In this document: positions 9,093 through 28,396 of the stretch, in pieces | How the letters are laid out: the number at the start of each line of letters is the position of its first letter | How positions within the stretch are numbered: position 1 is the first letter of the stretch | Translations under genes and position numbers: made by a program | The notes under the pieces: generated by a model | What the model was told of the DNA's origin: nothing | The model's input: the letters and a program-made list of their open reading frames with translations, nothing else | Database searches by the model: none | From: an uncultured Anaerolineae bacterium | GTDB taxonomy: Bacteria > Chloroflexota > Anaerolineae > SpSt-600 | NCBI GenBank assembly: GCA_964404055.1 | Contig: CAYOIS010000002.1 | Coordinates: 1 to 28,396 of the forward strand | DNA: 28,396 bases | Direction of reading: 5' to 3'

Positions 9093-11555
9093 ATGGAAGA
9101 GAAAAATGCCGTTTACTTTATCGCTCTTGCCTCTTTGCTTCAGCACATTGGGAGGTTTGCCAAGCTGGCCGGCTTTGAGGAGTTACTCCTGGAGAAGCCT
9201 CTGGAGGAACGAGAGAAGAAAATCCTCACGCTGGCCGACTATCTATCCACGGGCGAATTGCACCTTGCAGAAGGAAAGCAGCCCCGTCAGCTTCGCTCCA
9301 TCTTCTGTTCCCTCACTGCCGATGGCCAACAGGCCCCGGAAGTCCTATACTGGCCCCTGCAACCTCTGCAAATGCGTCAGGATGCCATCTTCCCTCAGAA
9401 AGAAGCGGTCTCTGAGACGATAAAGAAGGCCTATGAAGACCTCGGGGCAAAGTTTAAGGAGCAAGCTGAAAGCTTAAGAAAAACCCAGGGTGAGAACTTG
9501 CCTATCTACTTGGAAAGCCTGCTCCTTCTGCTTCAGCGCTATGCTTGGTGCATCCCTTCTGCCCTTCCGGACGTAAGCCTTTACGATCACGCCCGAATTG
9601 CCGCTGGGTTGGCAGCCTGCCTGTTGGAGCAAGACGAGGCTACGCTGGGGCAAATTCTAAATGCGCTGGAGGGATGGTTTCAGGCCCGCAATACGAACAA
9701 AGCTGCCCCGGCGTCCGAAGTGCTGGAGAAGGCAGAACTTGCCCTGCTGGTCGGTGGGGATATAAGCGGGGTACAGGACTTCATCTATACCATCACAGCA
9801 CGAGGTGCAACGAGCGCACTGCGGGGCCGCTCATTCTACCTCCAACTCCTAACTGAGGCAGTGGCCCGTTACGTCCTCCGGCGGCTTGGTTTGCCCATCA
9901 CTAACCTCATCTACCAAGGTGGCGGAGTCTTCTACTTGCTGGCCCGCCCATCCGACCAGGCTCGCCTTGAAGAAATCCGGCGGGAAGTGAGCTGCATCTT
10001 GCTGGCTCACCACCGGGGCGACCTCTACTTGGCGTTGGCTTTTGTCCCCCTCCACGCTGCTGACTTCTACGGCGGGCGCATCTCCGGAAGGTGGGAAGAG
10101 CTGGGGGAGCGGTTGCAGAAGGCCAAGCAGCGTCGCTTCTCCGAATTGGGGGATGAGCTGGCTTGGCTATTCCAGCCCGAAGGACACGGTGGTAGCGCGG
10201 AGAGAGAATGCCAGGTCTGCGGGCGGGAGCATCCAGGCACTAAAGAAGATAATGGAACCCGCAAATGTCCACCCTGCCTTTCGTACGAAGAGTTAGGGGA
10301 TGATTTGCGGCAGGCCCGTTACCTTTGGATGGCCCAAGAGGACCCGGCCGTGCCGGCTAAGCCCCTGGATGTAACACAAGGCGGCTGGAAAGAAGTCCTC
10401 GCTGCCTTCGGGATGAAAGCTGGTGTAGTGAAAGAACTCAAAGACGTGCCCAATACTATCAGGCCACGTTGGATTTTAGCCCTGAAAGATGAGGCAATGG
10501 CAGACTTGCAGCCTGATCCCCAAACCGTCGTTGGCCGCCGGTTCTTGGTCAATGTGACCCCGATTTTGACCCAAGAGGAATGCAATGAATTCCGGGGAAA
10601 GATAGAAGGCCTCTCTAAGCCGGGAAGCGTTAAGGATTTCTCCGTGATGGAACATCAGTCTAAGGGCATCAAGCGGCTGGGAGTCCTACGGATGGATGTA
10701 GACAACCTGGGCAAGCTCTTTGCCGAGGGATTTGGAGAGAAGGCGAGCTTTTCCCGGGTTGCCGCACTCAGCTTCGCCATCAGCCTATTCTTTGAGGGGT
10801 GGATAGAGGTACTGGCAGAAAGGCTGGGGAAGGATGAGAAAGGCCACGACCGCTTATACTCAATCTACTCCGGTGGGGATGACCTTTTCTTCGTGGGCTC
10901 TTGGGATGCTGTGGTAGAACTGGCGCGAGCGATTCGGGCGGATTTTTCCCGCTTTGTGGCTGGCCATCCGGGCGTCCATACCAGTGCTGGAATCGCCCTG
11001 ATCGGTGCCAAGTACCCCCTTTATCAGGCAGCAGAGGACGCTGGAAGGGCTGAGAGTCAGGCAAAGGGATTGCGCTGGGAAGAGGATGGAAAGAAGCGTG
11101 AGAAGGATGCCATCTCTTTCTTGGGGCAGGCTCTACCGTGGTACCGCTTTGGCATGGAGGACTGCGTAGAGGGTATGGATACCGTTCACAGCTTGGCTCA
11201 CCTTCTGTTCAGGTTAACCTCCCCGCAGGATAAAGGTGGGGAAGGTGTTCCCAGGGCCTTGCTCCAATTGCTGATTCGTCTCCGGGAGCTGCACCAGGAG
11301 ACTGCCGAAAGGCGGGCCCGAGTTGGGGAAGACCGTAATCTGGCCGGGACGGTTCAGACCTACTATGGCCCTTGGATTTGGCGAGGATACTATTTCCTGA
11401 AGAGGATGGCGCGGCGGCTGGAAAAGGAGCAACCGAAAGCCAGTAAAGATGTGGATAAGTTAGCAGATATGCTCCACAAAGGAAACTTCCGGGCAATAGA
11501 GTGGATTGGCTTAGCCGCCCGATGGGCGGAACTGCTGGGAAGGGAGGAAAAATAG
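9093..11555 (+). CDS. cas10: Type III-A Cas10/Csm1; HD motif degenerate, GGDD cyclase motif intact
   Basis: LLQHIGRF at the HD position, SLYDHAR, Palm1 GGDISGVQDFIY...LRGRSFYLQLL, Zn finger CQVC...CPPC, Palm2 RMDVDNLG...YSGGDDLFFVG. Confidence 0.96.
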   Translation: MEEKNAVYFIALASLLQHIGRFAKLAGFEELLLEKPLEEREKKILTLADYLSTGELHLAEGKQPRQLRSIFCSLTADGQQAPEVLYWPLQPLQMRQDAIFPQKEAVSETIKKAYEDLGAKFKEQAESLRKTQGENLPIYLESLLLLLQRYAWCIPSALPDVSLYDHARIAAGLAACLLEQDEATLGQILNALEGWFQARNTNKAAPASEVLEKAELALLVGGDISGVQDFIYTITARGATSALRGRSFYLQLLTEAVARYVLRRLGLPITNLIYQGGGVFYLLARPSDQARLEEIRREVSCILLAHHRGDLYLALAFVPLHAADFYGGRISGRWEELGERLQKAKQRRFSELGDELAWLFQPEGHGGSAERECQVCGREHPGTKEDNGTRKCPPCLSYEELGDDLRQARYLWMAQEDPAVPAKPLDVTQGGWKEVLAAFGMKAGVVKELKDVPNTIRPRWILALKDEAMADLQPDPQTVVGRRFLVNVTPILTQEECNEFRGKIEGLSKPGSVKDFSVMEHQSKGIKRLGVLRMDVDNLGKLFAEGFGEKASFSRVAALSFAISLFFEGWIEVLAERLGKDEKGHDRLYSIYSGGDDLFFVGSWDAVVELARAIRADFSRFVAGHPGVHTSAGIALIGAKYPLYQAAEDAGRAESQAKGLRWEEDGKKREKDAISFLGQALPWYRFGMEDCVEGMDTVHSLAHLLFRLTSPQDKGGEGVPRALLQLLIRLRELHQETAERRARVGEDRNLAGTVQTYYGPWIWRGYYFLKRMARRLEKEQPKASKDVDKLADMLHKGNFRAIEWIGLAARWAELLGREEK

Positions 11556-11661
11556 GAAATCCGCACTCTGGATGCAAAAGCAAGGGCTGTAAATCCGGGG
11601 TGCTTAAGTCTAAGCCTGGTAGTTTACGGCCAGGCCTCAAAATTATAACAGGAGGTGACAA

Positions 11662-12120
11662 ATGACACAGCAACAGAAAGGAACAACTTTCAATCCTCCC
11701 ACCGATCAAGACCTGTGCACCATCATCACTGACCCCAACGGCACGCAGAAACTGGTGGAGTGGGCTGACCGGCTGGGAAAGCACCTGAAGGATATAGGCC
11801 TTACTTCTCATCAGATCCGCACCCTTTTCGGTGAAGTCCGCCTGATTCAGGCGGAGTGGAACACTAACCGTCAGCGGGCATTCCGCCGTCTGGTCCTACT
11901 CAAACCCAAGATGGCCTATCGGGCCCGCAAAGAGCGCGGCAAAGCCGTTGGGGAACTGGTCAAAGTCCTGGACCCGGCACTGGATTATGTGATTAAGGCT
12001 AAACCCCGTCCAAAGGACCAACCGCCGGGGACTGGGGACAACCAAGATGACAATTTCCAGCGGTTTGTGGAATTCCTTGAGGCCATCCTGGCTTACCACA
12101 AAGCTTACGGCGGAGAGTAA
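11662..12120 (+). CDS. csm2: Type III-A small subunit Csm2
   Basis: LTSHQIRTLFGEV, LLKPKMAYRARK, FVEFLEAILAYHK; lies between cas10 and csm3. Confidence 0.92.
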   Translation: MTQQQKGTTFNPPTDQDLCTIITDPNGTQKLVEWADRLGKHLKDIGLTSHQIRTLFGEVRLIQAEWNTNRQRAFRRLVLLKPKMAYRARKERGKAVGELVKVLDPALDYVIKAKPRPKDQPPGTGDNQDDNFQRFVEFLEAILAYHKAYGGE

Positions 12121-12138
12121 TCCCTGAGGAGGTGAACC

Positions 12139-12963
12139 ATGCCGAATAAAACCATCCAACTTAAAGGCCGCATTTTCTTGACCTTTAATTTACGAGCTTG
12201 CACAGGTTTGCACATTGGCGGTTCAGAGACTGGAATTGAAATAGGCGGCATAGACAAAGTTGTCATCCGTGACCCCATCACTAACCGTCCGTACATTCCC
12301 GGCTCTTCCCTCAAAGGCAAGGTTCGCTCCCTCCTGGAGAAGTACCGCGGCCTCCCCCTGAACCGCAAAATTGGGCAAACCTTCATCCACAGTTGCGAAA
12401 AGCCGGAAGAATACCAAGGTTGCGACATCTGCCAAGTCTTCGGCGTCCCAGGGGAAATGGAATTCGCCACCCCTACTCGCCTCGTTGTCCGGGACGTCCA
12501 CCTGACGGAGGAAAGCGCTCGCATCCTGACCGAGCAAGCTCGTACCGACCTTCCATATACCGAAGTCAAGACGGAAGTAGCCATTGACCGGGTCACCTCT
12601 GCCGCTAACCCCCGCCGCATGGAGCGGGTCCCTGCCGGAGCTGTCTTCGGCCCTGCTGAACTGGTTTACTCCATCTATGAAGGAAGCGATGGTGAAGACA
12701 ACATCGCCGACCCTGGGAAAGATGTGGAGAGGTTCCGTACCTTGGTGGAAGGGCTTCAGCTCCTGGAAGATGACTACTTGGGCGGCTCGGGCTCCCGCGG
12801 CTCAGGCAAAGTGAAACTGGAAGGCATAACCGTTTCCGTCCGGCCCGGTGAAAAGTATCTGGAAGAGCCCCAAAAGGTGGGAGAATACAAAGACCTGGCT
12901 GCTCTTGTGGCTGAGCTGCCGATTCTGCTCCAAGAGTTAAAGCAGGCTTTTGGACTGGCGTAA
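12139..12963 (+). CDS. csm3: Type III-A Cas7-family backbone RNase Csm3
   Basis: LHIGG...IGGIDKVVIRDP (catalytic Asp position retained), PYIPGSSLKGKVRSLLE, EVKTEVAIDR, YLGGSGSRGSG. Confidence 0.95.
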   Translation: MPNKTIQLKGRIFLTFNLRACTGLHIGGSETGIEIGGIDKVVIRDPITNRPYIPGSSLKGKVRSLLEKYRGLPLNRKIGQTFIHSCEKPEEYQGCDICQVFGVPGEMEFATPTRLVVRDVHLTEESARILTEQARTDLPYTEVKTEVAIDRVTSAANPRRMERVPAGAVFGPAELVYSIYEGSDGEDNIADPGKDVERFRTLVEGLQLLEDDYLGGSGSRGSGKVKLEGITVSVRPGEKYLEEPQKVGEYKDLAALVAELPILLQELKQAFGLA

Positions 12964-12976
12964 GAGGAGGCGGGCG

Positions 12977-14128
12977 ATGGCTAAATTAACCGTCTACCGC
13001 CTCGCCTTTCATGCTGGCTTCCACGTCGGTATCCGGGGCGTTAACTTGGAGGAAAGCGGAACGCATATACCTTCAGACACCCTCTTCGCTGCCCTTTTGG
13101 ATGCTTTCATACGCAGCGGCGGTGATGCGGAGGGGTTCGCAAAGCCGTTCAAGGAAAGAACCCCGCCTTTCCTCCTTACCTCTGCTTTCCCCTTTGCCGG
13201 GGGCGTCCGCTTCTTCCCAATGCCAGTCCCTCTGGACCGCTGGTTTTCCCCCGAAACGCTCCGGGAGCGCTCCAAGGACCTGAGGAAAGTGAAGTTTCTC
13301 TCCGAGGGGCTTTTCCAGCTGATGCTGAAGGGGGAGCAAATGGACGATTGGCTCTTCCCGAAAGGAGAAGCTGAGCCAGAACGCGGTGTTGCCCTGCAAG
13401 ACGGGGTTTTCTGGCTTAGTGCGGACGAAGTCAAGCAACTGCCAGAATCTATGTGGATAAACCCTCGCACTCATCAGCCAATCCCTTTGCGTGCACTGCG
13501 GCGCCACTCAGTCTTCGCCTTACAGCAGGTGCCACGTGTTACCCTGGACCGAGTTTCCTCGGCCTCAAACATCTTTCATGCCGGGCGGGTATCCTTTAGC
13601 CTCGGCTGCGGGCTCTGGTTCGGTGTCCATTGGCTCAACCCCGACATGCAGGTGAGCGCAACCGGCCCTTCTTTCCGCAATGCTTTCTTAAGGGCCTTGG
13701 CAACCCTGGCCGATGACGGTCTGGGTGGGGAACGCACCGTCGGCTATGGTGGATTCTCCTGGACCGAGGAGCCAGATAGCCTTTCTCTGCCTGACCCGAA
13801 GGGAGAAAGCCTCATGTGGCTGCTATCCCGCTATCACCCACGTCAGGACGAGCTTCCGGTGGCATTGACTGAATCCCCCGGATACCGTTTGACCGCCGTG
13901 GCGGGATGGCTCCGCTCCTGGCAAGGCCCATCTCAGCGACGCCAACGCCTCTGGTTAGTGGCTGAAGGAAGTCTCATCTGCTCCGTTGGCTCCGGCCCCT
14001 GGGGCGATATTACTGACGTCCGCCCTCGCTACCTCAACCCCGCTGGCGACCTCCCACACCCAGTCTGGCGCTACGGTTTCGCCTTAGGAGCCGGCGTAGC
14101 AGAGGATTCACAACGCCAGGAGGTGTGA
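12977..14128 (+). CDS. csm4: Type III-A Cas5-family subunit Csm4
   Basis: HIPSDTLFAALL, FLLTSAFPF, RVTLDRVS, G-rich loop GLGGERTVGYG. Start set to the ATG at 12977 after a GAGGAGG RBS. Confidence 0.92.
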   Translation: MAKLTVYRLAFHAGFHVGIRGVNLEESGTHIPSDTLFAALLDAFIRSGGDAEGFAKPFKERTPPFLLTSAFPFAGGVRFFPMPVPLDRWFSPETLRERSKDLRKVKFLSEGLFQLMLKGEQMDDWLFPKGEAEPERGVALQDGVFWLSADEVKQLPESMWINPRTHQPIPLRALRRHSVFALQQVPRVTLDRVSSASNIFHAGRVSFSLGCGLWFGVHWLNPDMQVSATGPSFRNAFLRALATLADDGLGGERTVGYGGFSWTEEPDSLSLPDPKGESLMWLLSRYHPRQDELPVALTESPGYRLTAVAGWLRSWQGPSQRRQRLWLVAEGSLICSVGSGPWGDITDVRPRYLNPAGDLPHPVWRYGFALGAGVAEDSQRQEV

Positions 14129-14129
14129 A

Positions 14130-15257
14130 ATGGCCGACTACATCCTTTACAAAGCTAAGGCTACGCTCCTAACCCCACTCCACATCGGCACTGGGCGGAA
14201 CCTGCTCCTCTCTTACGACTACGCTGTTTATGGTGGGCGGACTTGGCGGCTGAACGAGGACGCTATTTTAGAGGCCCAGAACGTGGATGACCCAAGGGTC
14301 ATGGCTTTGCTGATGAAGACCCCGCCTGCTCAATTGTTGAAGCCAGGGGATTTCCAAGAGGGAAGCCCATTCTTCCGGTACGTCATCCGTGGTGTACCTC
14401 GCTCTCAAGCTGAAGGAGCCCAGCTGCAGGAGCAATGGAAAGACCCATATGACCGTCCGTACCTCCCTGGCACCAGCCTCAAAGGTGCGCTGCGAACTGC
14501 ACTGGCCTGGCATGCTTGGGAAATCCTGAAGCTCCGCCCAGAGCGGTCTCGCCTCAACCCCAATCCCCGCTTCGCTGCTCAGGGCTATGAGCGCCAAATT
14601 TTCGGCCCTGACCCCAACCACGACCTCCTGCGCGCCTTGCACGTGGGAGACAGCGAACCGGTCGGAGCAGACAGGCTGATTTTGATTAACGTGCGGGTCA
14701 TAAACAAGACAGGCACAATGGGACCACCAATTGAGCTTGAAGCAGTTGCTCCGGAGACAGTTTTCCACTTCACTGTCAAACTGGACCTGACGCTCTTCTC
14801 CGACTGGGCCAAGCGGCACCGGCTGGAGATGCATGGGGAAGACTGGCTGCGGAACCTGCCAGCGGTGGTCAACCGCCACACTGCACAACGGTTAGAAGAG
14901 GAGCGGGCGTGGTTCAACGGTGTCCCCGGTGCGGAACGGATTCTGCAATTCTACAAGGAGCTGAAAGTTCCCGCTCGTGGCTTCCTCTTGCAGGTTGGCT
15001 GGGGCACCGGCTGGGACGACAAAACTTTCGGCAGTCACCTGCGGGCTGACCCCGACTTCTTGGAGGGAATCCTGCGACCTCCCAAGGCAGGAGGCTACGG
15101 CATCGCTCGGGGCCGCCGCCAGCCTGGAGACCCATTCCCTAAAAGCCGCCGGGTTATAGTCCAAATTCATCGTGCCCCGGATGGCCGCATCATCCAAGAG
15201 CGCCCTGTCGCCCCTCTGGGGTGGATGTGGGTAGAATGGGAGGAGGCGGCCTTGTAG
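14130..15257 (+). CDS. csm5: Type III-A RAMP subunit Csm5
   Basis: LLTPLHIGTG, PYLPGTSLKGALRTAL, LRALHVGDS, LQVGWGTGW, PLGW. Confidence 0.92.
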   Translation: MADYILYKAKATLLTPLHIGTGRNLLLSYDYAVYGGRTWRLNEDAILEAQNVDDPRVMALLMKTPPAQLLKPGDFQEGSPFFRYVIRGVPRSQAEGAQLQEQWKDPYDRPYLPGTSLKGALRTALAWHAWEILKLRPERSRLNPNPRFAAQGYERQIFGPDPNHDLLRALHVGDSEPVGADRLILINVRVINKTGTMGPPIELEAVAPETVFHFTVKLDLTLFSDWAKRHRLEMHGEDWLRNLPAVVNRHTAQRLEEERAWFNGVPGAERILQFYKELKVPARGFLLQVGWGTGWDDKTFGSHLRADPDFLEGILRPPKAGGYGIARGRRQPGDPFPKSRRVIVQIHRAPDGRIIQERPVAPLGWMWVEWEEAAL

Positions 15258-15424: not shown

Positions 15425-16312
15425 TTGGGTAAATTAATGGTTTGCTTAATTGGCGAACAGCCTATTCCCAACCTCTTGCCGCTGCGCCACCAGCCACCGG
15501 ATATAGCTTTGTTAGTGCACACTGACCGGACGAAGGGAGTGGCTCAGCGGCTCAAGAAATTGCTGGAACCCAAGGTTAAAGTTTACTTGCTTCAGACAGA
15601 CCCTTACGATGTTCAGAAAATCCATGAAGACCTTCAGAAATTCCTTGCTGAGAATATTGAGGAAGGGACGGAACTGGTGTTCAACCTGACCGGAGGTACT
15701 AAGACAATGGTTCTGGCTGCGTACGAGTTGGCTCGGGAACACAATGCCCCTTTCCTCTACCTTCAAAGCGAAGGTAAGCGCTCCGTCCTTTACCGATACC
15801 GGTTTGAGGCGAAGGAGCCCTTTTATGAAGACAAGGAAACAATACCAGGCGTCATCACCATTGAGGATTACCTGAAGGCTTACGTGGACAACTACAATGT
15901 TACCGAGCCGAGGAACCCCTTTGAGAAAGAAATTGGGAAAGCCTTGGAAGGAGCAGTGGATGAAGTGGTTAGTGGGGTAACTTTAGCTGCAGCGCTGGAG
16001 GTGGACTTGGTCGTTCGGAAAGGAAACCAGGTGGGCGTGATAGAGGCCAAAACAGGCGCCAGGGCAAGGAGTAAAGAAGGCCTGGACCAATTGAATGCTG
16101 TATGCGAGCAAAGATACTTGGGCACATACACCCATAAAATCCTGGTCGTAAACCAGCAATGGAGTCAAACTCTAACTAACCTCCGCGAACTGGCTAACGC
16201 CTGGCGCGTAACCGTAATTGAATTGCCCTCATTTACTGAAGAGCACCCTTTTCTGTCCGAAGAAGATAAAGAAGTCCTTCGGAGCGAAGTTATCAAAGTC
16301 CTAAGTGGATAA
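15425..16312 (+). CDS. CARF + PD-(D/E)xK nuclease effector (Card1/Can2, DUF1887-like)
   Basis: N-terminal CARF (VCLIGEQPIPNLL...FNLTGGTKTM) and C-terminal restriction-endonuclease-like motif EVDLVV...VIEAKTG. TTG start with GGAGG RBS. Confidence 0.82.
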   Translation: MGKLMVCLIGEQPIPNLLPLRHQPPDIALLVHTDRTKGVAQRLKKLLEPKVKVYLLQTDPYDVQKIHEDLQKFLAENIEEGTELVFNLTGGTKTMVLAAYELAREHNAPFLYLQSEGKRSVLYRYRFEAKEPFYEDKETIPGVITIEDYLKAYVDNYNVTEPRNPFEKEIGKALEGAVDEVVSGVTLAAALEVDLVVRKGNQVGVIEAKTGARARSKEGLDQLNAVCEQRYLGTYTHKILVVNQQWSQTLTNLRELANAWRVTVIELPSFTEEHPFLSEEDKEVLRSEVIKVLSG

Positions 16313-16321
16313 GGAGGCCCT

Positions 16322-16705
16322 ATGATCGTCCTCAACTTTTCTCACCCCCTCACCGAAGAGCAATTAGCCCAGATAGAAGCGCTCACAGGCCAGAAAGTAG
16401 AGCGGGTCATAGAAGTGCCAACTCAACTGGACCCTGAAGCACCGTTCGCCCCGCAGGTGATGGAGCTTGTGGAGAAGGTGGGGCTTTCTCCCAAGGAATG
16501 GCAAACTTTGCCCATCCTCATTAACCCCCCATCCCTGAACGCCATTGCTGTTATCCTCTTGGCTGAACTCCATGGGCGGATGGGCTACTTCCCCACCATC
16601 ATCCGGCTTCGTCCTGTTCCGAACGCTATCCCTCCACGCTTTGAAGTGGCCGAATTAATCAACCTGCAAGCCGTGCGAGACAAAGCAAGGGAGCAGAGGA
16701 GATGA
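16322..16705 (+). CDS. csx15: CRISPR-associated protein Csx15-like
   Basis: MIVLNFSHPLT..Q...IE..TG, ILINPPSL, LAELHGRMGYFP recalled as Csx15 signatures; located among type III ancillary genes. Confidence 0.75.
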   Translation: MIVLNFSHPLTEEQLAQIEALTGQKVERVIEVPTQLDPEAPFAPQVMELVEKVGLSPKEWQTLPILINPPSLNAIAVILLAELHGRMGYFPTIIRLRPVPNAIPPRFEVAELINLQAVRDKAREQRR

Positions 16706-17457
16706 GGGAGCGAAAGGAACTCCTCAACTTTTTGAGAGCCTTCCTTCAGAGCGCCGAGTCCTCGCCAGAACTGCTGGCTGCCTTCATCCTGGGACTAATC
16801 GTAGCGAACACCTTAGCCCAGTTAGTTTACGAGCTGCTAATGGCGCCCAAAACCTGGTCTACCCTGTGGCGGCCTGCTTTGGCAATCTTTGTGATGACGG
16901 GTGTGGCTTATTTGCTCTACCGACGTGACCGGCAGCGTGCTCGCACCATGCATGTTGTCGTAGATGAGAACCGATTGGCTCCGCCTCACCCTGGCATAAT
17001 CTGGCTCTTCGGGCCAGGCCGGTTTGACCATCTGCTGTTCGCCCTTGAGCACCACCAGAAAGGAGGCGGGGCATCCCACTGCTGGTTAGTGATGCAGAAC
17101 ACAGAACCAGTGCAGAGGACATATAGCCAACTTATCCAGCAGCTGAATGCCAAGGGGCTGAAGACCCAACTGCATCCCATTTACATCCCCCAACTGGAAG
17201 CTGGAGATGCCTACCAGGCCGTCCGGAGGGTCTTTGAAGAGGAAGCGCCTAAGGTGGGCCTGAAGCCAGAAGAGGTTATAGCCGATATCACCGGTGGCCT
17301 TAAGCCTTTGACTGCAGGCATGATACTGGCTGCCATCACTCTTGACCGCGAGTTGGAATACGTGGAGAGCGAAAGGGACCCTCAAGGAGAGCCAATTCCT
17401 GGTACACTACGTGTTGTGCTAATAGACCTGAATTTCTATGTTACACGAAAGGGGTGA
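16702..17457 (+). CDS. Transmembrane CARF effector (Cam1-like architecture)
   Basis: Two N-terminal TM helices (LLAAFILGLIVANTLAQLVYELL; LWRPALAIFVMTGVAYLLY), then a CARF-like Rossmann domain with IADITGGLKPLTAGMILAA. Confidence 0.78.
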   Translation: MRERKELLNFLRAFLQSAESSPELLAAFILGLIVANTLAQLVYELLMAPKTWSTLWRPALAIFVMTGVAYLLYRRDRQRARTMHVVVDENRLAPPHPGIIWLFGPGRFDHLLFALEHHQKGGGASHCWLVMQNTEPVQRTYSQLIQQLNAKGLKTQLHPIYIPQLEAGDAYQAVRRVFEEEAPKVGLKPEEVIADITGGLKPLTAGMILAAITLDRELEYVESERDPQGEPIPGTLRVVLIDLNFYVTRKG

Positions 17458-17458
17458 C

Positions 17459-18340
17459 ATGCTTTTAGCAGCAGTAATCTTCCTTTCCCCTTTATACCCA
17501 GTAACCCTCCCCGCTGACCTGGGGCGGGCGGTCCATGCCTGGTTCTTAGGGCAGGTGCAAAGGGTTGACCCCGCCCTGGCCGAACGTCTCCATGAGCCCA
17601 ACCGCCCTCGCCCTTTCACCCTCTCCTCTCTCCGGGGTGTAGGGAAAACCACAGGGGGAATGGTAGCCCTTACCCCGGAGCAGGATTACTGGCTGCGGGT
17701 GACCAGCATGGAAGCGACCATCTCCCGCTGCTTGCTGGAGCATATCCTCCCGGCCCTGCCTGGGGAAGAGATAGAGCTGGCGGGGGCAACTTTCAAGATT
17801 AAGGGAGCAACCTACGACCCAGCAGAGCATCCTTGGGCTGGGCAGACAACTTACGAAGCACTGGTTAAAGAACACTTGCTTGGGACAGGGCAATTGGAGC
17901 GCACGCTGACCCTCCAGTTTGCCTCGCCTACCACCTTCCGGCGGACAGGGATGACCTCAAGCCTGACCGATGGGGAGGGGCAAGCCTACCGGGTAGTGGG
18001 GCACAATTTCCTGCTGCCTTTGCCTGGGCTGGTCTTTGACAGTTACCTTCAGCGATGGAATGCCTTTGCCCCAATAGCACTTCCGCTGGAGGTGAAGCGG
18101 TTTGCGGAGGAATGTGTGGCAATAAGCCGATACCGGCTCCAAACCGTGCTGGTGGAGTTTGGGGAGGTCCGTGAGCTTGGATTTGTGGGGACATGCCAGT
18201 TCACTGCGCTGGTAGCAGACCCCTACTGGTTGCGTATCTTGCACCTTCTGGCGGCCTTTGCCTTTTACGCTGGCACAGGCCACCACACCGCCCGTGGGAT
18301 GGGGCAGACAAGGGAATTGACAATAACCAGCGAGAAATGA
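17459..18340 (+). CDS. cas6: CRISPR precursor-processing endoribonuclease Cas6
   Basis: LHEPNRPRPFTLS, FASPTTFR, C-terminal G-rich loop FAFYAGTGHHTARGMGQ. Start set to the ATG at 17459, right after the upstream stop codon. Confidence 0.92.
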   Translation: MLLAAVIFLSPLYPVTLPADLGRAVHAWFLGQVQRVDPALAERLHEPNRPRPFTLSSLRGVGKTTGGMVALTPEQDYWLRVTSMEATISRCLLEHILPALPGEEIELAGATFKIKGATYDPAEHPWAGQTTYEALVKEHLLGTGQLERTLTLQFASPTTFRRTGMTSSLTDGEGQAYRVVGHNFLLPLPGLVFDSYLQRWNAFAPIALPLEVKRFAEECVAISRYRLQTVLVEFGEVRELGFVGTCQFTALVADPYWLRILHLLAAFAFYAGTGHHTARGMGQTRELTITSEK

Positions 18341-18360: not shown

Positions 18361-18629
18361 AGAATCCGAGCATGAAAGGGGGTAAGGGCACTTTTGGAGA
18401 TGCTCGGAATTTTGGCCAAGTGTGCCCCTACAATTAGTGGTGCAAAGGTTCTAAATCGGCACCGGTAGTGTATAATGGAGGCAAAAATCCGAGCATCCCC
18501 CCACTTTTTAAGGCCTGTGGAGATGCTCGGAAGTGAAAAAGATGGTAGTTTTTGACCAATTTTTGGTTACAAAGATGATGTTTGATGGCCTCTTGGGTGA
18601 AAAATTGAGCACCTTAACAATCTTGAGGA
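18361..18629 (+). promoter_or_regulatory. CRISPR leader-like sequence, copy B (most complete)
   Basis: Inverted-repeat units at 18365-18408 and 18488-18531; TATAAT at 18471-18476; starts ~20 nt after the cas6 stop and ends at a repeat. Confidence 0.78.
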
Positions 18630-18666
18630 GTAGAAATGAATAGTGCTCCCTTCGGGGGATTGAAAC
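18630..18666 (+). CRISPR. Solitary CRISPR repeat B (37 nt)
   Basis: GTAGAAATGAATAGTGCTCCCTTCGGGGGATTGAAAC; its 5' end matches repeat C1 (28063) and it carries the ATTGAAAC handle. Confidence 0.78.
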
Positions 18667-18776
18667 ATTAGACCTAACCCCCGGCCCCCTTCCCTTGCAG
18701 AGAAGGGGGGATTCTGGTGGGGCGGGTTTTCCCCTCCCCGTTTCGGGGAGTGGCCGGGGGAGGGGTTGATTGAAAC
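18667..18776. repeat. GC-rich REPIN-like palindromic element B, followed by a second GATTGAAAC
   Basis: ATTAGACCTAACCCCCGGCCCCCTTCCCT-TGC-AGAGAAGGGGG. Outer arms CCCCCGGCC and GGCCGGGGG pair perfectly. GATTGAAAC at 18768-18776. Confidence 0.7.
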
Positions 18777-18796
18777 TTTAAAGTGAGGGTGTGGGG

Positions 18797-21151: not shown

Positions 21152-21173
21152 CGCTTGCTAAAGGAGGTGGAAA

Positions 21174-24029
21174 ATGGAAAGGGTGCAAGAATTTTACTTC
21201 TCCCCTACCCTCATCATTGGCCTTGGGGGGACGGGGCAAAAAGTGGTTAGGAGGGTAAAGGGAAGGCTGAGGGAGGCCTTCGGTGATGTCCCAATCATAC
21301 GCTACCTGGTTATAGACACGGACAGCACGGCCAATCAGCCAGGTGAGGAGCCTTTAGAGGACTACGAGCGAGTGGAAATGAGAGGATTTGACCTCAACCA
21401 GGTCGTGGAAAATCTGTCGAGGTTTCCTTCCATTCAGAAGTGGTGGCCTGCCCCTGGACTTAAGCCAGGCTTCATCCGTGGCGGCGCTCCCCAGCAGATG
21501 CGATGTGCAGGTAGGTTGGCCCTCTTCAGCAAATATTCTGACTTCATCCCAAAGCTTAGGGAAGCTGCTAGCGCATTGGCGGAGATTGAGAACTATACAA
21601 AGACCGAAGAAATGAGCACCCCTGAAAAAAGATACATCGTTGAAAGGGGAGAAGAAGGGGTGCCCATCATGGCGAAGGTCTTTATCATACTATCCCTCTG
21701 TGGGGGGACGGGGAGCGGCATCTTACTTGATGTCGCCTATCTCTGCCGTTACCTCCTTCAGGATCTCCACCCAAGGATTAACGTCATGGCCGTTTTGCCT
21801 ACCGCGCTGGATACGATACCCACAATAAGAAGAACTACTATCATCAGGGATAAGAACAGGGCCAACACCTATGCTTGCCTTAAAGAGATAGACCATTTCC
21901 TTTCCAACCCTCGCTGGGTCTGCTTATACCCTGATGGGGCAAGCGTTGAGGTTAGTGCTCCTCCCTTTGACTTCATGTACATGGTGGATTTGCATAACCA
22001 AAAGGGGGAAAGGCTGAACTCCATAGATGACATCTGTGAGATGATCGCCAGCGCCATCTTTCTTAGCACTGGGTTGCCCACAGCGAGGGAAATAGAGAGG
22101 CAGGATACTATCTCTCATATCACTCTTGCTCAAGTTCAGGGTAAGTTTAGAGCTTACAGTTCTGTGGCAATCACTTCCCTCATCTTTCCAAAAGAGAGAA
22201 TCTTGGACTATTGTTCAGCAAAGATGGCTGAGGCCTTGATCAGGGAGGGTTTCTTGCAAGGGAGCGAAAGCAGCAGCGTTAAGATAAAGAAGAGCGATGT
22301 TGAACAAGCCGTCTCCGCCTTCCTCGGCGAGGCACACCTTAGAGCCGAGGATGTCATGTCCGAGTTGCGAAGCGGTAGGCAGGTGTTCATCACCAAGAAA
22401 TCCGAGATTCTCAGGAGCCAGGACGCAGCAAACGCCCTCCGGCTGCTCACGGAGCAGGAGGAAGACAATAGGAACCAAAGGCAAGAACAGGCAAACTTGA
22501 TCAAGGAGAAGGCTGCATCGCTCCTTGAAGAAGCAAAGGAGGCCTTAGAACGCAGGGTGCTGGACGAGGTAAAGGAGAGGGGCTTACACTTTGCTGCTCT
22601 TTTCTTGGAAACGCTGACTCGTGAGCCTCAGCCTGGGGAAGTTGGCGTAACCACCACATCGCTATTAGGCTTGCGGCGTAGAATAGAGTCGGAAGGAGTC
22701 CCAGAGGAGGCCCTGAAAAAAGCTGAGGGGAGCTACACCAAGGCGAAAAGCCAGCTCAAAGCATTTGAAGGGAATACTTTCTGGAAGGTGATAAGGTTTA
22801 TCTCAAAGTCCTGGTGGCAGCGAAAATTGAAGGGGCACATCTCAAATTGCCTCACGAACATGGAGGAGGCTAACGGGAGGGCCATTGACATTGAGGCCCA
22901 GAGGAGGGCATTGGATCTCTACAACGCCCTGGTAATGGAGGCGAAGCGCCTTCTATCAAGCCTGGCACAGGTCCGCCAGAAGCTGGTGATTGCTGCAGAA
23001 AAACTCTCAGCCGAGGCTGAAGATAAGCTAAAGCCTCCCTCGGCCATGGAAGGGGTATACGAGCTGGCCACAGAGGTAGTTGATGCCGATTACATCATGC
23101 GATACTATGAAGAGAAAGCAATCTCCATTGACTTACCCACCGCCTTCAGGGGATTTGCCCAGAGCCTCCCGGATACGAGGGTGGCACAGTTGGAGATGAG
23201 GAGTGAGAAAGATTATATCAACCGGCTAAAGGAATATGCTGCTGGCTACTTCCGGGAAGGCCTGGAAAGGATACGCTTGCTCGACCTCTTAAGCGAAAGA
23301 GCACCTGAAGAAATAGAAAGGCAATTCCAGAAGCTCATTAGTCACTGCGAGCCATTCTGTCGGTATAATAAGGCTGGCCTTGGCGAAGAGCCAGAACCTA
23401 TTTTTGTGTCCATCATCGGCGTTGAGGATAAGGGTGACCTTAGGATTCCGGAGCGCTACCGCAACGAGGCCATATCCACCGGCCTCAGGCACCGCATTGA
23501 TGCCCTTAGGGCTTTTCATGGCATCCCCGCTTTCCTAATAAGTGATATGAGAGAATACAAGGGCTGTTACGAGAGGGAGAAAAGGAGAGGCGTAGACCCA
23601 TTGCACATTGGCCAAGGATGGGATAGGTTTGAAGACATTTTCCCAGAGCTTAAGAGGGAGGCCAGGGACATCTTCGCCCTCGCTTTGGCCTTTGACTTCA
23701 TCGTTCAGATAGGGGAGTGGTACTACTTTGACCCCGACCGGAAGTACAAGGAAAAGGGAATACGATTACCCGTAGAGAATAGGCTCGCTCAAGGGAGGGA
23801 GAAAGCAGAGGAAGCTTTCATTGAAAGGGACGATATAGTGAGTAAGGCAATGGAGCTTATTGAAGAGGAAATCACCAGGAAAGGAAATGAGGCCATCATA
23901 AGCTTCTTGGAGCAAAAGATAGAGGAAAACGAAGGAAAAATCAGGGAACGTCCCACCAGCGACTTGCGGGAGTTTTGGGAAAGGGATATTGAAGCCTTCA
24001 AGCGCAAACTAAAAGCTTTGCAAGGGTAA
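21174..24029 (+). CDS. Tubulin/FtsZ-like GTPase (FtsZl1/Tubulin_2 type) with long helical C-terminus
   Basis: LIIGLGGTG, YLVIDTD, AGRLAL, signature SLCGGTGSG, ANTYACLKEID; ~600 aa helical/coiled-coil tail; AAGGAGG RBS. Confidence 0.85.
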   Translation: MERVQEFYFSPTLIIGLGGTGQKVVRRVKGRLREAFGDVPIIRYLVIDTDSTANQPGEEPLEDYERVEMRGFDLNQVVENLSRFPSIQKWWPAPGLKPGFIRGGAPQQMRCAGRLALFSKYSDFIPKLREAASALAEIENYTKTEEMSTPEKRYIVERGEEGVPIMAKVFIILSLCGGTGSGILLDVAYLCRYLLQDLHPRINVMAVLPTALDTIPTIRRTTIIRDKNRANTYACLKEIDHFLSNPRWVCLYPDGASVEVSAPPFDFMYMVDLHNQKGERLNSIDDICEMIASAIFLSTGLPTAREIERQDTISHITLAQVQGKFRAYSSVAITSLIFPKERILDYCSAKMAEALIREGFLQGSESSSVKIKKSDVEQAVSAFLGEAHLRAEDVMSELRSGRQVFITKKSEILRSQDAANALRLLTEQEEDNRNQRQEQANLIKEKAASLLEEAKEALERRVLDEVKERGLHFAALFLETLTREPQPGEVGVTTTSLLGLRRRIESEGVPEEALKKAEGSYTKAKSQLKAFEGNTFWKVIRFISKSWWQRKLKGHISNCLTNMEEANGRAIDIEAQRRALDLYNALVMEAKRLLSSLAQVRQKLVIAAEKLSAEAEDKLKPPSAMEGVYELATEVVDADYIMRYYEEKAISIDLPTAFRGFAQSLPDTRVAQLEMRSEKDYINRLKEYAAGYFREGLERIRLLDLLSERAPEEIERQFQKLISHCEPFCRYNKAGLGEEPEPIFVSIIGVEDKGDLRIPERYRNEAISTGLRHRIDALRAFHGIPAFLISDMREYKGCYEREKRRGVDPLHIGQGWDRFEDIFPELKREARDIFALALAFDFIVQIGEWYYFDPDRKYKEKGIRLPVENRLAQGREKAEEAFIERDDIVSKAMELIEEEITRKGNEAIISFLEQKIEENEGKIRERPTSDLREFWERDIEAFKRKLKALQG

Positions 24030-24038
24030 AGGGTTTTT

Positions 24039-26453
24039 ATGGAAGAGAGATTAGGCATTACAGTATTCCCTTCGGTGGTCATAGGCCTGGGGGAATTTGG
24101 GCTGAGAATAATTGAGAGAGTCCGCTCCGAGATTATAGAGGTTGAGCCAAAGCTGGAGCTCATCACCAGTTTTGTGGCCGTGCGAGGGGCAGGCGAAGGG
24201 AGAATAGAGGCCTTCTCCCTCACCGACTCGCCGATTGAGGGTGAATGCGTAGACATGCCGCGACGTGAGGCCTTCCAAACATTTCAAATCGCCCTGCCCG
24301 AGGTGCAAGTGCAGTTACATGAAGCCATCAGGAAAGTGAGGCTCCATCGGAGTCTGGTTGCCGTCGGAAAGCGGCCGGAGGAGATAGGCATCTATGTTTA
24401 CATTGTGGCCGACCTGAAGGAAGGCATCTCAAGCGGCATCATCCTTCCCCTGTCCTATCAAGTTCGTGGCCTCCTTGCAGATCAACCTTACCATTCCATT
24501 GTTGGCCTCTTCTCAATTGCTAATTTCTCGCCACCCTTGGAGCAACAAAGGGAGAGGGCAATGCTATATGCTGCCCTTAAGGAATTGGATTACTTCATAC
24601 GGATGCCCTACGACAAGCCCAGCGTGAATGAGATTATGGGTTTTCCCGTGAAAGGTCCTCCCCTTAACCACTGCTACCTGTTTGATGTAACCAAGGAAGA
24701 TGGTTCCTTGGTTGAGGGGCCCGAAGAGTTACGTAGCGCCATGAGTTGTTTCTTGCTTTCTCTACTCATTTCCTCCTTTGAGGAAGAGATGGGGAAGAGG
24801 CTCCATCGCCTCGGTTTGGCAGAGAGAGGCGGATTCTATTCCGGCGGAGGGGTTGCTGTTTTATACTACCCTGTGGATAGGGTAACAACTTGGTGCGCGG
24901 CTAAACTGGGAGCAAATTTCATAGAAGAGCAACTTCTCAGGCCGTCACGCCTCAACCTCAGTGCCTTGAGCGAGGAGGGCGAGCAGGCAGGAGAGGAGGC
25001 CTTAAGCCTTAAAAAGTGGATGGGGAAGCTAATAGACGGGATACCAGCCAGAATGACTGGCAAAGGACTTCACATTGAGCTGGAGGTGGATAGGCCGAAT
25101 TTTGACGAGATAGCCAAGGAGGACTGGGCTGATAGAATTGCCAGCTTTGATTCCCTCTTCGGAACACATCGCTTCCCTCTCTATCAGCGCAAGCTGGAGG
25201 AGAATGCTTCCCGGCTCCATGAGCGGGTTATATCTCGGCTTTCCAAAGCCCTTGATTCTGCCCTAACGGAGGCTCGGCTTTACCCATCCGGCATCCCAGG
25301 GGCTCGGAAAATCCTGGAAAAGTTTGAGGAGACCTTGGCGAAGCGGAAGCAAGAATTGGAGCAATATAGGGCTGAATTCCCATTAGACCCTGAAGGAGAC
25401 CTGCGCACCTTGGAGGAAGCTGCCCTGAACTTCCCACCTTTCCCTGCCCTCTTGGCTCGGCTTCTACTCCTATGTATCCTGGAGGTTTACCTTGGCCTTT
25501 CCTTTTTCCAGTTGCTTGATTTCCTCTCCCTGTTTTCTCTCCTCTCCCTCTTTGCCCTTTGCCTCCTCACCGTGGTAAGTGGCCTTTGTTGGTTCAAGCG
25601 AAAGGACGACCTACTCATCCAGAAGCGGGAGAGGTGCATGGAGAACGTGGGACGCAAGTACAGCGCCATGTTGGAAACCCAGGCCCTTGCCAAAATCAGG
25701 GAGACTATACAGAAAGTTGAGGAATGGATTGGGGAGATGAGGGCAAAGTTGGATGAGCTTTGGAATGAGCTGGAAGAGGCGCAAAACAAGCTGTACCAGG
25801 CGATGGAAGCAAGCCTTGTAGCAGCGGAGCCTTTCGTGCGCTTGGCGGTGAGCGAGGAAGTCCTTAGAGACTTTTACCTCCGCTTTGTCCCTTCAAAGGA
25901 GGCTTTGCTTTCTTCTTTACTGGAGGAAGAAGGGTTACTCAATAATTGGAAGGACCTCAAAGAGGGGATAATTAGGGAAAAGCTCCTTTCTTTTGGAAAG
26001 AAAGCCTTCAGAGGACCGCTGCGGGGGGTCTCGCTTGAGCAAATCTTGCGGGAGCGGATACCCCCTTCCCCGGAGGAGAGGCTGAGACCTCTTTTAGATT
26101 TGGCAGTGCCGCTTTTGAAGTTCAACCTTGAAGGTCTCGGTGAGGGGCTCTCCGCTTGGCCAGGAGATTTCATCGCCTTAGAGAACTTTTCCTCCTCAGT
26201 GCTGAGCTCCTTCATCTCCAAGGAATTAAGAGAAATGGAGCATTTCTCTACTGGTGACCCCTATCACGTCTTCCTTTGCAGGACGAGGCACCTTCTGCCT
26301 TTGATTTCCATCGGGACGGTAGCGAGACTGCTGAGGGAGCTTTATCAAAAGGTGGATAAAGAGGAGAGGAAGGCCCTACATTTACTTGACGAATGGGCTG
26401 ACCTTCCGGAACCATCGGTTAGCGGTCAGAGAGTAGGGGGAAGAGAATGCTGA
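24039..26453 (+). CDS. Degenerate tubulin-like paralogue with an internal transmembrane hairpin
   Basis: VVIGLGEFG, VYIVADLKEGISSG (aligns to SLCGGTGSG), AMLYAALKELDYF, CYLFD; hydrophobic stretch LLARLLLLCILEVYLG...LCLLTVVSGLCWF within coiled coil. Confidence 0.75.
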   Translation: MEERLGITVFPSVVIGLGEFGLRIIERVRSEIIEVEPKLELITSFVAVRGAGEGRIEAFSLTDSPIEGECVDMPRREAFQTFQIALPEVQVQLHEAIRKVRLHRSLVAVGKRPEEIGIYVYIVADLKEGISSGIILPLSYQVRGLLADQPYHSIVGLFSIANFSPPLEQQRERAMLYAALKELDYFIRMPYDKPSVNEIMGFPVKGPPLNHCYLFDVTKEDGSLVEGPEELRSAMSCFLLSLLISSFEEEMGKRLHRLGLAERGGFYSGGGVAVLYYPVDRVTTWCAAKLGANFIEEQLLRPSRLNLSALSEEGEQAGEEALSLKKWMGKLIDGIPARMTGKGLHIELEVDRPNFDEIAKEDWADRIASFDSLFGTHRFPLYQRKLEENASRLHERVISRLSKALDSALTEARLYPSGIPGARKILEKFEETLAKRKQELEQYRAEFPLDPEGDLRTLEEAALNFPPFPALLARLLLLCILEVYLGLSFFQLLDFLSLFSLLSLFALCLLTVVSGLCWFKRKDDLLIQKRERCMENVGRKYSAMLETQALAKIRETIQKVEEWIGEMRAKLDELWNELEEAQNKLYQAMEASLVAAEPFVRLAVSEEVLRDFYLRFVPSKEALLSSLLEEEGLLNNWKDLKEGIIREKLLSFGKKAFRGPLRGVSLEQILRERIPPSPEERLRPLLDLAVPLLKFNLEGLGEGLSAWPGDFIALENFSSSVLSSFISKELREMEHFSTGDPYHVFLCRTRHLLPLISIGTVARLLRELYQKVDKEERKALHLLDEWADLPEPSVSGQRVGGREC

Positions 26454-27508
26454 GGAAGCGTTTCTTTCAATCGGTTTTAGCGTTTGTGTTACTTTTCTTC
26501 GTCTTGCCCACCAACCTTCTGGTTTGGGCATCCACGGCCCCTCATCTTACCGTAGGTGTGAACTATAAATGGTTGCTCCTCTTGGGCATTTGCTTCCTTC
26601 TAGTTCTCATCTTGGTTGTGCTCTTCTTTAAACCTGAGGGGAAACTCGCTTGGGCCGATGAGCTTTGTTGGGCTGGGGATTTGCGGGGGTTGGATAACTT
26701 TCTCCTTTGGGTTTTGCCGCCAATTTCTCTTGGCCTGGCGCTGGCTGCAATCAGGTGGGAGACGGAAGGAGCCCTTTTCCTTTCGGTGCTGGTGTGGTTC
26801 GGCTTGCTGCTTAACCCCAAGGAAAGACCTCCCAGGAAGCCCATCCCTTTACCTGTTAGGGTTCCGGACGGCGATATTCACAAGTGCTACAGGTGGAAGT
26901 TTAGCGAAAGTTTGCCCCACTCTGCGGAGAAGATCCCCGTGGAGTTCACCCTTGAGCTTGATATAAACAGTGGTAGATATAGGGCATGCAAGGAGGAGCC
27001 GAGGGAACTAAACCCTCTGCGGTGGGACAAATATGTATTGGCCCCTCTGCCTGAGGTTGAGGTTTTGGCGTGGAAAATGGCCGAGCTCCATCGGAAGAGG
27101 GGGTATTGCAGCTACGACCAGGCTGCTAACGTGTTAGCTTTTGTCCAGCAGTGCATTGTGTACACTAAAGACCTCTCGCCCGAGGGAGAAGAAATAGAGT
27201 ATCCCAAGTATCCAATTGAGAGTCTGGTAGAGGAAACTGGTGATTGTGAAGACCATGCTATCTTAGCGGCGGCGGTCTTGAAGAGGATGGGATTTGATGT
27301 AGCGCTTCTTTTCTGTCCTGGCCATGCCGCCCTTGGCGTTGCCGGCGCCGAGGGATTACCAGGCACATATATAGAGGACAGGAGAACCGGAATCAAGTAC
27401 TTCTACGCCGAAACCACAGCTGAGGGGTGGGAAATAGGTGAGCTGCCGCAGGAACTGAGGGACGAGGAGTTCATAATTCTGCCCATAGTCTTGGCTATTG
27501 AGCGGTAA
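26447..27508 (+). CDS. Membrane protein with C-terminal transglutaminase-like cysteine protease domain
   Basis: Four hydrophobic segments, then FVQQCIVY, YPKYPIESL, GDCEDHAIL (Cys), PGHAALGV (His), YFYAETT (acidic residue). Overlaps the upstream gene by 7 nt. Confidence 0.8.
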   Translation: MLRKRFFQSVLAFVLLFFVLPTNLLVWASTAPHLTVGVNYKWLLLLGICFLLVLILVVLFFKPEGKLAWADELCWAGDLRGLDNFLLWVLPPISLGLALAAIRWETEGALFLSVLVWFGLLLNPKERPPRKPIPLPVRVPDGDIHKCYRWKFSESLPHSAEKIPVEFTLELDINSGRYRACKEEPRELNPLRWDKYVLAPLPEVEVLAWKMAELHRKRGYCSYDQAANVLAFVQQCIVYTKDLSPEGEEIEYPKYPIESLVEETGDCEDHAILAAAVLKRMGFDVALLFCPGHAALGVAGAEGLPGTYIEDRRTGIKYFYAETTAEGWEIGELPQELRDEEFIILPIVLAIER

Positions 27509-27653
27509 ACAAGAATTTTGATGGCTCCTGGGCCGCGGTTGGATTAGGAATGGGTAAGTTTCATGAAAGATTCGGTTGGAAGTGTGAATGGTCTTGGAAG
27601 CGCCATCTTTTATTTTAAGGTCGGCGCAGGCCGACCCCAGGCCTAAGGCCCAG

Positions 27654-27673
27654 GTAGGCTGATTTCAATCGGC
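27654..27673. repeat. Short REP-like palindrome, copy 2
   Basis: GTAG-GCTGAT-TTCA-ATCGGC; related to 7110-7125. Confidence 0.45.
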
Positions 27674-27846
27674 ATCAAGCTTGCCCTTTCCAGTGAGATG
27701 GGGTGAAATATAGCCAGCAAGCATTTTTATGTTTGTGCCTGTTGCTTTAGGCCGTAGCTGGCTTCACGGGACATTTCCGGACTATGGAATAGGGAAGTGG
27801 ATGGTAACGCAGGAGAGCGGAGGCTATCTTTATATAAGCCAAGGCC

Positions 27847-28003
27847 AAAATCCGAGGATGAGGTGGGGTCGGTGCACTTTCTGCAAGCCTCGGATTTTTG
27901 GGTGGGCATGCCCCTACTGGTAGGGGATAAGCAGCCTTGGACTGGCACTGGTAGGGCATGGTGGTGGCAAAAATCCGAGCATCTCCCCCACTTTTTGGGG
28001 CAT
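27847..28003 (+). promoter_or_regulatory. CRISPR leader-like sequence, copy C (3'-truncated)
   Basis: Perfect 11-bp inverted repeat AAAATCCGAGG/CCTCGGATTTT (27847-27898). The second unit's left arm is at 27974; its right arm is missing. Confidence 0.65.
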
Positions 28004-28238
28004 GGGGATTGAAACGACAGCTTGTGGGTTGGGGAGTGTCCCGAAAATTGCATAAACAGGACGTAGAAATGAAGAGCATCCCCTTCGGGGGATTAAAATC
28101 ACCTATCCTGGGCTTATCGCAGCTACGTTACGCCTGTGAGCTAAAGAAAATCCCCTTCGGGGGATTGAAATGTTGCTGTCGGTTTGAGCCACATCGTCCA
28201 TCGCTTGGGTAAGTGCATCCCCTCTGGGGGACTGAAAT
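28004..28238 (+). CRISPR. Degenerate CRISPR mini-array: partial repeat plus 3 repeats; spacers of 47, 36 and 31 nt
   Basis: C0 GGGGATTGAAAC 28004-28015; C1 GTAGAAATGAAGAGCATCCCCTTCGGGGGATTAAAAT 28063-28099; C2 GTGAGCTAAAGAAAATCCCCTTCGGGGGATTGAAAT 28136-28171; C3 GCTTGGGTAAGTGCATCCCCTCTGGGGGACTGAAAT 28203-28238. Confidence 0.75.
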
Positions 28239-28263
28239 GTGTGAGCACGAATTTTAGAAGTGG

Positions 28264-28308
28264 CAAGGGCGCAGAGGACGCAAAAACTTCGCGCCCTTGG
28301 TGTTTTTT
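28264..28308 (+). terminator. Putative intrinsic terminator after the mini-array
   Basis: 9-bp stem CAAGGGCGC (28264-28272)/GCGCCCTTG (28291-28299) followed by GTGTTTTTT. Confidence 0.5.
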
Positions 28309-28396
28309 GTGGTTCAAAATCAACTGCTTAAGGGGATTACTGCCGCTGAAAGGGGCAAACGAAAGGGCCAGAGTTTAAGGCTAATCCCAGTGGAAA

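Follow-up and report, generated by a model that had tools for sequence, protein, structure and literature searches.

The short repeat array at positions 28004-28238 of the window, by which we mean the whole 28,396-nt stretch of DNA analysed here, is almost certainly a relic of a type III-A (Csm) CRISPR array. We lean towards the view that the array, frozen as it appears from its sequence, still supplies a few fixed crRNAs to the Csm complex, that of spacer S2 above all. This mini-array would be the surviving trailer end of an array of the adjacent type III-A system. The window is an entire contig of a metagenome-assembled genome (MAG) of 1.99 Mb and 95.6% completeness, whose Cas6-based relatives are Anaerolineae; DNA of this contig is also contained in hot-spring metagenomes.

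A repeat search places 28072-28099, 28144-28171 and 28211-28238 in one 28-nt direct-repeat family, spaced by 72 and 67 nt, and these segments fall within repeats C1, C2 and C3 (Table 1). A hairpin of the form ATCCCC-loop-GGGGA(T/C) is predicted in each of the three repeats, with a 5-bp stem in C3, and their 8-nt tags begin at 28092, 28164 and 28231. A first-pass annotation of this DNA had arrived at the same tag starts, and had described both a conserved hairpin-and-tag half in C1-C3 and a terminator-like hairpin after the array. The tag coordinates agree with ours, the shared half is borne out by repeat family, alignment and folds, and the closing hairpin is indeed present (28262-28303, followed by a T-run). 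A minus-strand gene converges on the latter, with its stop codon, located by eye, at about 28337-28339.

The array is the same in three independent samples. Two more metagenome contigs, with 99.7-99.8% identity over ~10 kb, carry it unchanged, and no alternative array forms were found in the contigs of two DNA runs; S0 shows one G>A variant at 28059 in a second sample. We considered whether further repeats lie beyond the contig end and rejected this, as two metagenome contigs span the end of the window and lead into contig C178 (with a short overlap of ~16 nt). Open reading frames running across the array (27958-28212 on the plus strand and 27727-28079 on the minus strand) are spurious, because the leader and repeat DNA is homologous to non-coding DNA of relatives. 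The start of S2 can partly pair with the C0/S0 junction (inverted repeat I7, 75% over 20 nt), which was judged to be chance, and a scan of 26000-28396 against Rfam gave only a sub-threshold Gut-1 match (21 bits, E 0.54), which we likewise take as chance.

Table 1. Features of the mini-array and of the linked type III-A locus, with positions in the window.
Feature	Position	Strand	Basis or remark
Type III-A effector genes cas10/csm1, csm2, csm3, csm4, csm5	9093..15257	+	NCBIfam equivalogs E 1e-175 to 5e-17; Pfam concordant
Accessory genes: CARF (Card1-type), Csx15, Csa3-like CARF	15425..17457	+	Pfam CARF_Card1 3e-16; NCBIfam Csx15 2e-54; weak Csa3/CARF matches
cas6 endoribonuclease, presumed processor of the mini-array repeats	17438..18340	+	Pfam CRISPR_Cas6 5e-17, Cas6_N 4e-10
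Promoter-like TTGCCC-17 nt-TGAAAT, upstream of leader, weak -10	27681..27709	+	Found by eye; not called by consensus scan
Truncated CRISPR leader module (proximal ~165 nt of ~190-nt conserved module + distal leader)	27838..28003	+	Aligns with 8684-8848 and 18355-18521
C0, final 12 nt of a repeat (GGGGATTGAAAC), joined to leader	28004..28015	+	Leader comparison with relatives
Spacer S0, 47 nt	28016..28062	+	Unique in genome
Repeat C1, near full length, tag ATTAAAAT	28063..28099	+	5' half matches solo repeat 18630-18666 and GTAGAAATGA-type repeats of G004
Spacer S1, 35 nt	28100..28134	+	Unique in genome
Repeat C2, perfect 22-nt core, tag ATTGAAAT, diverged 5' half	28135..28171	+	Repeat family, fold, alignment
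Spacer S2, 30-31 nt, common to sister species	28172..28201	+	28/31 identical in G007 and four metagenome contigs
Repeat C3, terminal, unrecognisable 5' half, loop TCTG, tag ACTGAAAT	28202..28238	+	Repeat family, fold, alignment
Intrinsic-terminator-like hairpin (28262-28303) and T-run closing the array	28262..28309	+	Scan match 28291-28303; 13-bp stem, -24 kcal/mol

The assignment to CRISPR rests on the repeat core and on the leader. A search of the 1.99-Mb genome for the 22-nt core ATCCCCTTCGGGGGATTGAAAT, with up to three mismatches allowed, finds four copies, all of them in the window, and a reversed control gives zero; allowing four mismatches adds two matches, at 18645 in the window and on contig C6. 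The same core is present in the 37-nt repeat of the congener genome G004 and in the array of the sister-species genome G007; it is widespread in long Anaerolineae arrays, and related cores adjoin cas6 homologues. The ~190-nt leader module is found at three sites of the window (8684-8848, 18355-18521 and 27838-28003), and the copy ahead of the mini-array is 78-82% identical to leaders that head real arrays in G004 and G007. Because the module heads real arrays in G004, we identify it as the CRISPR leader and the mini-array as an array of this system. The three spacers are unique in the genome, and the repeats lie at array-like spacing. That chance or non-CRISPR hairpin repeats, such as REP-like terminator hairpins, merely mimic an array is an explanation we hold to be next to negligible: two of the repeat hairpins do score as terminator-like on the minus strand, and the genome contains other dispersed hairpin elements, but a core identical to that of bona fide arrays in relatives, found only behind CRISPR leaders, with array-like spacing and an empty reversed control, is not what such elements would give.

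The cas10-to-cas6 block (9093-18340) lies on the same strand as the mini-array, so that linked cas genes including the processing nuclease are at hand, and every reading frame of the csm effector genes is open. Cas6 scores 52 bits against NCBIfam cas_cas6, slightly below the cut-off. Cas10 (9093-11555) has the GGDD cyclase motif, while the site expected for the N-terminal HD nuclease motif reads QH (LLQHIGRF) by eye; this suggests that the effector depends on cyclic oligoadenylates as signals to the CARF proteins (15425-17457). We also observed a near-consensus promoter-like site with a TG extension (TTGACA-18-TAAAAT, 18317-18346), which overlaps the cas6 stop and reads into the leader that follows. 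Between this leader and that of the mini-array lies an operon of four genes (18791-27508) coding for a vWA-FHA protein, two Tubulin_2 proteins and a transglutaminase-like protein; the vWA gene of G004 likewise begins directly after a final array repeat.

The leader of the mini-array is damaged. It is without the distal third; in the leader whose module lies at 18355-18521, the part missing here includes a rather weak promoter-like site about 50 nt before the repeat (TTGACC-16-GATGAT, 18552-18579). Leaders of relatives continue GGGGCATGGGGAGAT.CTCGG, and this one reads GGGGCATGGGGATTGAAAC, switching into the end of a repeat; the fusion of leader and C0 probably arose by a deletion across the shared GGGGA. 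A consensus promoter scan of 27400-28396 returned no promoter. The candidate upstream of the leader (Table 1) has a counterpart at the matching position in two G004 leaders (TTGCCC-17-TAAAAT), and is poorer than this counterpart, with a G at the key second position of the -10 element. Within the leader, the segment 27889-27900 can pair with either of two others: with 27968-27979, to which it is 100% complementary (inverted repeat I16), and with 27846-27857, in a hairpin that is followed by a T-run. These interchangeable arms (27846-27900 and 27968-27979) look like an attenuator or an alternative-structure element; no Rfam family matched this region in the scan of 26000-28396.

The other two leaders of the window each keep a single repeat (8924-8960 and 18630-18666), followed by a C/G-rich hairpin element, and of these stubs, the one at 8684-9090 immediately precedes cas10 and the one at 18355-18790 the vWA gene. 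In G004 (JAPWUT010000030), a congener with the same locus layout, the leader module heads a 10-repeat array right after cas6 and a 3-repeat array before cas10, and the last repeat of both arrays is interrupted by the same hairpin element as in the stubs. A six-frame Pfam Cas1 search found no cas1 in the MAG (95.6% complete, with unbinned contigs possible) nor in G004; cas1 is present in four other congeners, and that of G007 is flanked by cas6 and a leader. The G004 arrays (contig C271) contain two identical adjacent spacers (~10761-10916) and a spacer-plus-repeat shared between arrays (616-715 and 11063-11153), which points to remodelling by duplication and recombination, not by integration. 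A spaced k-mer search detected no ordinary array elsewhere in the MAG, with the caveat that repeats may be missing from such an assembly and that a full array, like cas1, could lie on a contig left unbinned; the array remnants of the window are thus the only sources of crRNA seen for an intact effector operon. The repeats of the mini-array are non-identical, unlike those that acquisition maintains, and no Pfam Cas1 was found in the genome (95.6% complete); we therefore class the array as a relic and not as an active array.

The decay of the repeats is strongly asymmetric. In the 37-nt register of C1-C3, 18 of the 22 columns of the 3' part are invariant vs 3 of the 15 columns of the 5' part (Fisher p=5e-4), and pairwise identity amounts to 58/66 in the 3' part vs 17/45 in the 5' part. 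The first-pass annotation had called the first ~14-15 nt of the repeats nearly unrelated. This holds for the three repeats taken together, with 3/15 columns invariant, but not in detail: conservation extends ~6 nt further in the 5' direction (AAG at -6 to -4), and the 5' half of C1 agrees with the solo repeat at 18630-18666 in 13/15 positions and closely resembles the G004 repeats, so that C1 is near a full-length repeat. The same bias is seen in relatives. The G004 repeats deviate from their consensus at 34/195 positions in the 5' part vs 7/274 in the 3' part, counts that do not represent independent events; the deviating repeats are the older ones. In related arrays across the class Anaerolineae, the 5' repeat half varies widely, whereas both the tag A[TC]TGAAAC and the hairpin are kept, the latter through compensatory changes in its stem. 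An even spread of substitutions over the repeats of relatives, which had been named beforehand as an outcome that would speak against selection for guide processing, was thus not seen.

Cas6 cuts at the 3' base of the repeat hairpin and thereby leaves an 8-nt 5' tag on the crRNA, and the 3' end of type III crRNAs is trimmed. Since maturation by Cas6 and the type III complex needs the hairpin and the 8-nt tag, only the 3' half of the repeat should matter once integration has stopped. The asymmetry fits the earlier proposal that selection maintains guide processing rather than acquisition, as the half that is retained corresponds to the Cas6 hairpin and the tag; the proposal gains further from the failure to find cas1, the truncated leader, the identity of the array in three samples and the conservation of the S2 unit described below. 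C3 has TCTG instead of TTCG as its tetraloop and ACTG instead of ATTG in its tag, with a 5-bp stem retained; these changes are of a tolerated kind, judging from related arrays in which ACTGAAAC is a natural tag. The tags of C1-C3 all end in T, where the solo repeats and most repeats of full arrays end in C, and the tag of C1 has a second change besides; such deviant tags could impair loading into Csm.

Based on these observations, we suggest the following course of events. The lineage would have lost spacer acquisition, as indicated by the failure to find cas1 and by the truncation at the leader-repeat junction, and its arrays would since then change solely by recombination and point mutation, which has left only one repeat behind each of two of the three leaders. 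The 3' hairpin and tag half would remain under selection, and the 5' half, relevant to integration, would drift. Cas6 would cut a presumed transcript of the array at 28092, 28164 and 28231, yielding two or three fixed crRNAs (S1, S2 and perhaps the tail after C3) that may be loaded into Csm and may have a target. These crRNAs would amount to a frozen immune memory, in which S2 is best supported, by its conservation.

This conservation emerges from the comparison with a sister species. In G007 (CAZPWR01) and on four metagenome contigs, an orthologous array end is found at the syntenic site, adjoining the genes of contig C178, which are 85-88% identical between the two lineages. The block 28150-28224, comprising the C2 hairpin, S2 and the start of C3, is identical to the sister species at 70 of 75 positions. 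Going through the array end from 5' to 3', identity is 9/15 (60%) for the 5' half of C2, 22/22 for the C2 core (21/22 in three of the four contigs and in G007), 28/31 for S2, 12/14 for the 5' part of C3 and 15/28 for its 3' part, where an indel destroys the tag; it is 52-57% in the tail after the array. Third codon positions of the three largest adjacent ORFs are 71-74% identical to the sister species, and with these as the yardstick, only 5 mismatches in the 75-nt block have P ~8e-6, and S2 alone has P 0.018. From the C2 hairpin through S2 to the start of C3, the conserved block covers the elements that an S2 crRNA requires, and the element that has decayed in the sister, the terminal C3 tag, is one that such a crRNA can do without. 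We read this as selection on one Cas6-processed crRNA unit, from a single comparison; the conservation of the S2 block, seen against one sister lineage, is the best evidence for function that the sequence offers.

S0 and S1 are private to the lineage studied here, and a genome scan with the 5' part of C3 retrieved no genome besides the sister MAG. The remaining congeners that we examined yielded neither the array nor S2 at the syntenic site; three or four of them have unbroken sequence across it. The S2 unit of the sister lineage lies 1.7 kb from the leader and first repeat, behind a two-gene insert, a position that counts against a crRNA still in use. On Ga0197143_1019479 (minus strand, ~382-2145), this insert consists of two ORFs of 315 and 130 aa and resembles a giant spacer between two repeats; the predicted proteins are Pro-rich/membrane-like and Cys-rich, the stop codon of the second ORF and the beginning of the next repeat overlap, and neither gene matches a Pfam family.

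Several observations weigh against an array that still supplies crRNAs, namely that no promoter was called by the scan, that the tags deviate from the consensus, that no protospacer was found and that the site is empty in other congeners. Along with the truncated leader and the collapse of the other two arrays of the contig to single repeats, they would also fit an inert fossil, untranscribed or unused, in which both the asymmetry and the survival of these repeat-spacer units are by-products. In the absence of acquisition, recombination between repeats shrinks arrays, so that only units whose flanking repeats had already diverged escape, and gene conversion among the repeats of the contig could keep the GC-rich hairpin cores alike. 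Degenerate repeats have been shown experimentally to resist recombinational loss of spacers (PMC9458426), and a survey judged the mini-arrays that flank type III loci to be degraded (PMC10120712). We consider an inert fossil a genuine if minority possibility, since survivorship explains the divergence of the 5' halves but not an S2 that is 28/31 identical next to non-coding DNA of ~55% identity; S2 and the 5' part of C3, both unique, are beyond the reach of gene conversion, and an intact csm-cas6 operon would be left with no other source of crRNA in the assembly. The reading of a frozen array still in use seems to us the likelier one.

Searches for a target of the spacers gave no protospacer. 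Against the own genome, the longest exact self-match of S0, S1 and S2 by blastn-short was 13-14 nt (E >=0.14), and an ungapped scan with up to 10 mismatches gave no match above shuffled controls; the best host match of S2 has 8 mismatches in 30, and shuffled sequences reach 7-10. The relaxed search against the host that the first-pass annotation had proposed therefore came out no better than its controls. INPHARED phages yielded only blastn matches of E 0.3-0.9, and exact 20-21-mers of the three spacers were absent from IMG/VR. Among the matches listed for 400 Anaerolineae genomes there were repeat cores and two weak matches to the terminator tail, and none confined to a spacer. A metagenome scan with a 24-mer of S2 retrieved only array-bearing contigs of the two known lineages, and no protospacer.

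These results bear on the first-pass suggestion of a regulatory or toxin-antitoxin-like role. Spelled out, one or more spacers would act as a domesticated guide, for regulation or addiction, against a host transcript, a toxin or the neighbouring vWA/tubulin-like operon. The crRNA-like regulators named in the literature that we checked, CreA, CreR and scaRNA, use DNA-binding effectors, namely Cascade (CreTA), Cas9 (scaRNA) and the effectors of types I-B, I-E and V-A (CreR), which they guide to a partially matching promoter in the same genome (PMC9458426; bioRxiv 10.1101/2023.03.10.532045). The mini-array is like these in that degenerate repeats flank a fixed spacer, a divergence that would stabilise the unit against recombination, and the conservation of S2 across two species and the fixation of the array across samples would suit such a role. 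It is unlike them in that the effector is the Csm complex, an RNA-targeting type III effector and not a DNA-binding repressor, and that no self-match was found: host complementarity does not rise above shuffled controls, no toxin-like small gene or conserved RNA partner was seen between 27509 and 28396, and the S2 unit of the sister species stands in a different upstream context. With neither a self-target nor a toxin-like partner, and with a type III effector, the suggestion finds no support here, and we give it very little credence.

A related and bolder proposition, drawn from the same sequence comparison, is that S2 and the upstream Cas6 hairpin form a hard-wired guide that has been under purifying selection in at least two Anaerolineae species since adaptation was lost. 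We regard this as improbable; if it were true, S2 would be a type III crRNA with a fixed, heritable target, which might be either a mobile element, resident or constantly present, or a host transcript. In the latter case it would be the first crRNA-like regulator to work through a type III effector, as none of this type is described in the literature on mini-arrays and crRNA-like RNAs that we checked.

Canonical type III-A arrays processed by Cas6, such as those that provide the substrates of Thermus thermophilus Cas6A/B, have repeats with a 3' stem-loop and an 8-nt tag. The mini-array resembles them in its 37-nt repeat with a GC stem of 4-6 bp, a tetraloop and an 8-nt tag of the ATTGAAAC type, in having its leader on the 5' side, and in the proximity of cas6 and csm genes. 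It differs from them by its non-identical repeats, its truncated leader, its two to three spacers, and in that no adaptation genes were found. In static arrays that lack active adaptation, the spacers at the trailer end are conserved. As in such arrays, the oldest, leader-distal spacer is shared here between lineages and the array is invariant across samples; in contrast to them, the lineages that share it are separate species, with neighbouring genes only ~85-88% identical, and the divergence of the repeats is asymmetric.

The closest published counterparts are the mini-arrays that adjoin 10-14% of type III loci (Shmakov et al. 2023, PMC10120712). The survey found those flanking type III loci to be mostly degraded and non-functional, on the grounds that close relatives do not share their position and that targets are lacking (PMC10120712). 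Our mini-array is similar to them in being short, with degenerate repeats of which the distal one is the most degenerate, in its location just outside a type III operon, and in the lack of a detectable target; it is different in that one spacer unit is kept at a syntenic site in a sister species, much better than the DNA around it, and that decay spares the Cas6 hairpin and the tag. It reveals no new mechanism, and is of the kind described in that survey (PMC10120712), departing from it on conservation. On this point, the published picture of such mini-arrays as simply dead needs to be qualified in the light of this case. The case shows what becomes of arrays when acquisition stops and the interference genes stay intact, that is, a collapse to single repeats, with the surviving repeats keeping only the half needed by Cas6 and the type III complex. 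The asymmetric decay and the spacer unit shared across species together make up a natural experiment that separates the repeat positions required for interference from those required for integration.

Elsewhere in the genome, an orphan CRISPR vestige is located at ~8950-9200 of contig C6, between housekeeping genes and with no cas genes nearby. It consists, in this order, of the distal half of a leader, one good repeat, a 26-nt spacer, a second repeat and the hairpin element, and the second repeat has decayed in its 3' half and not in its 5' half.
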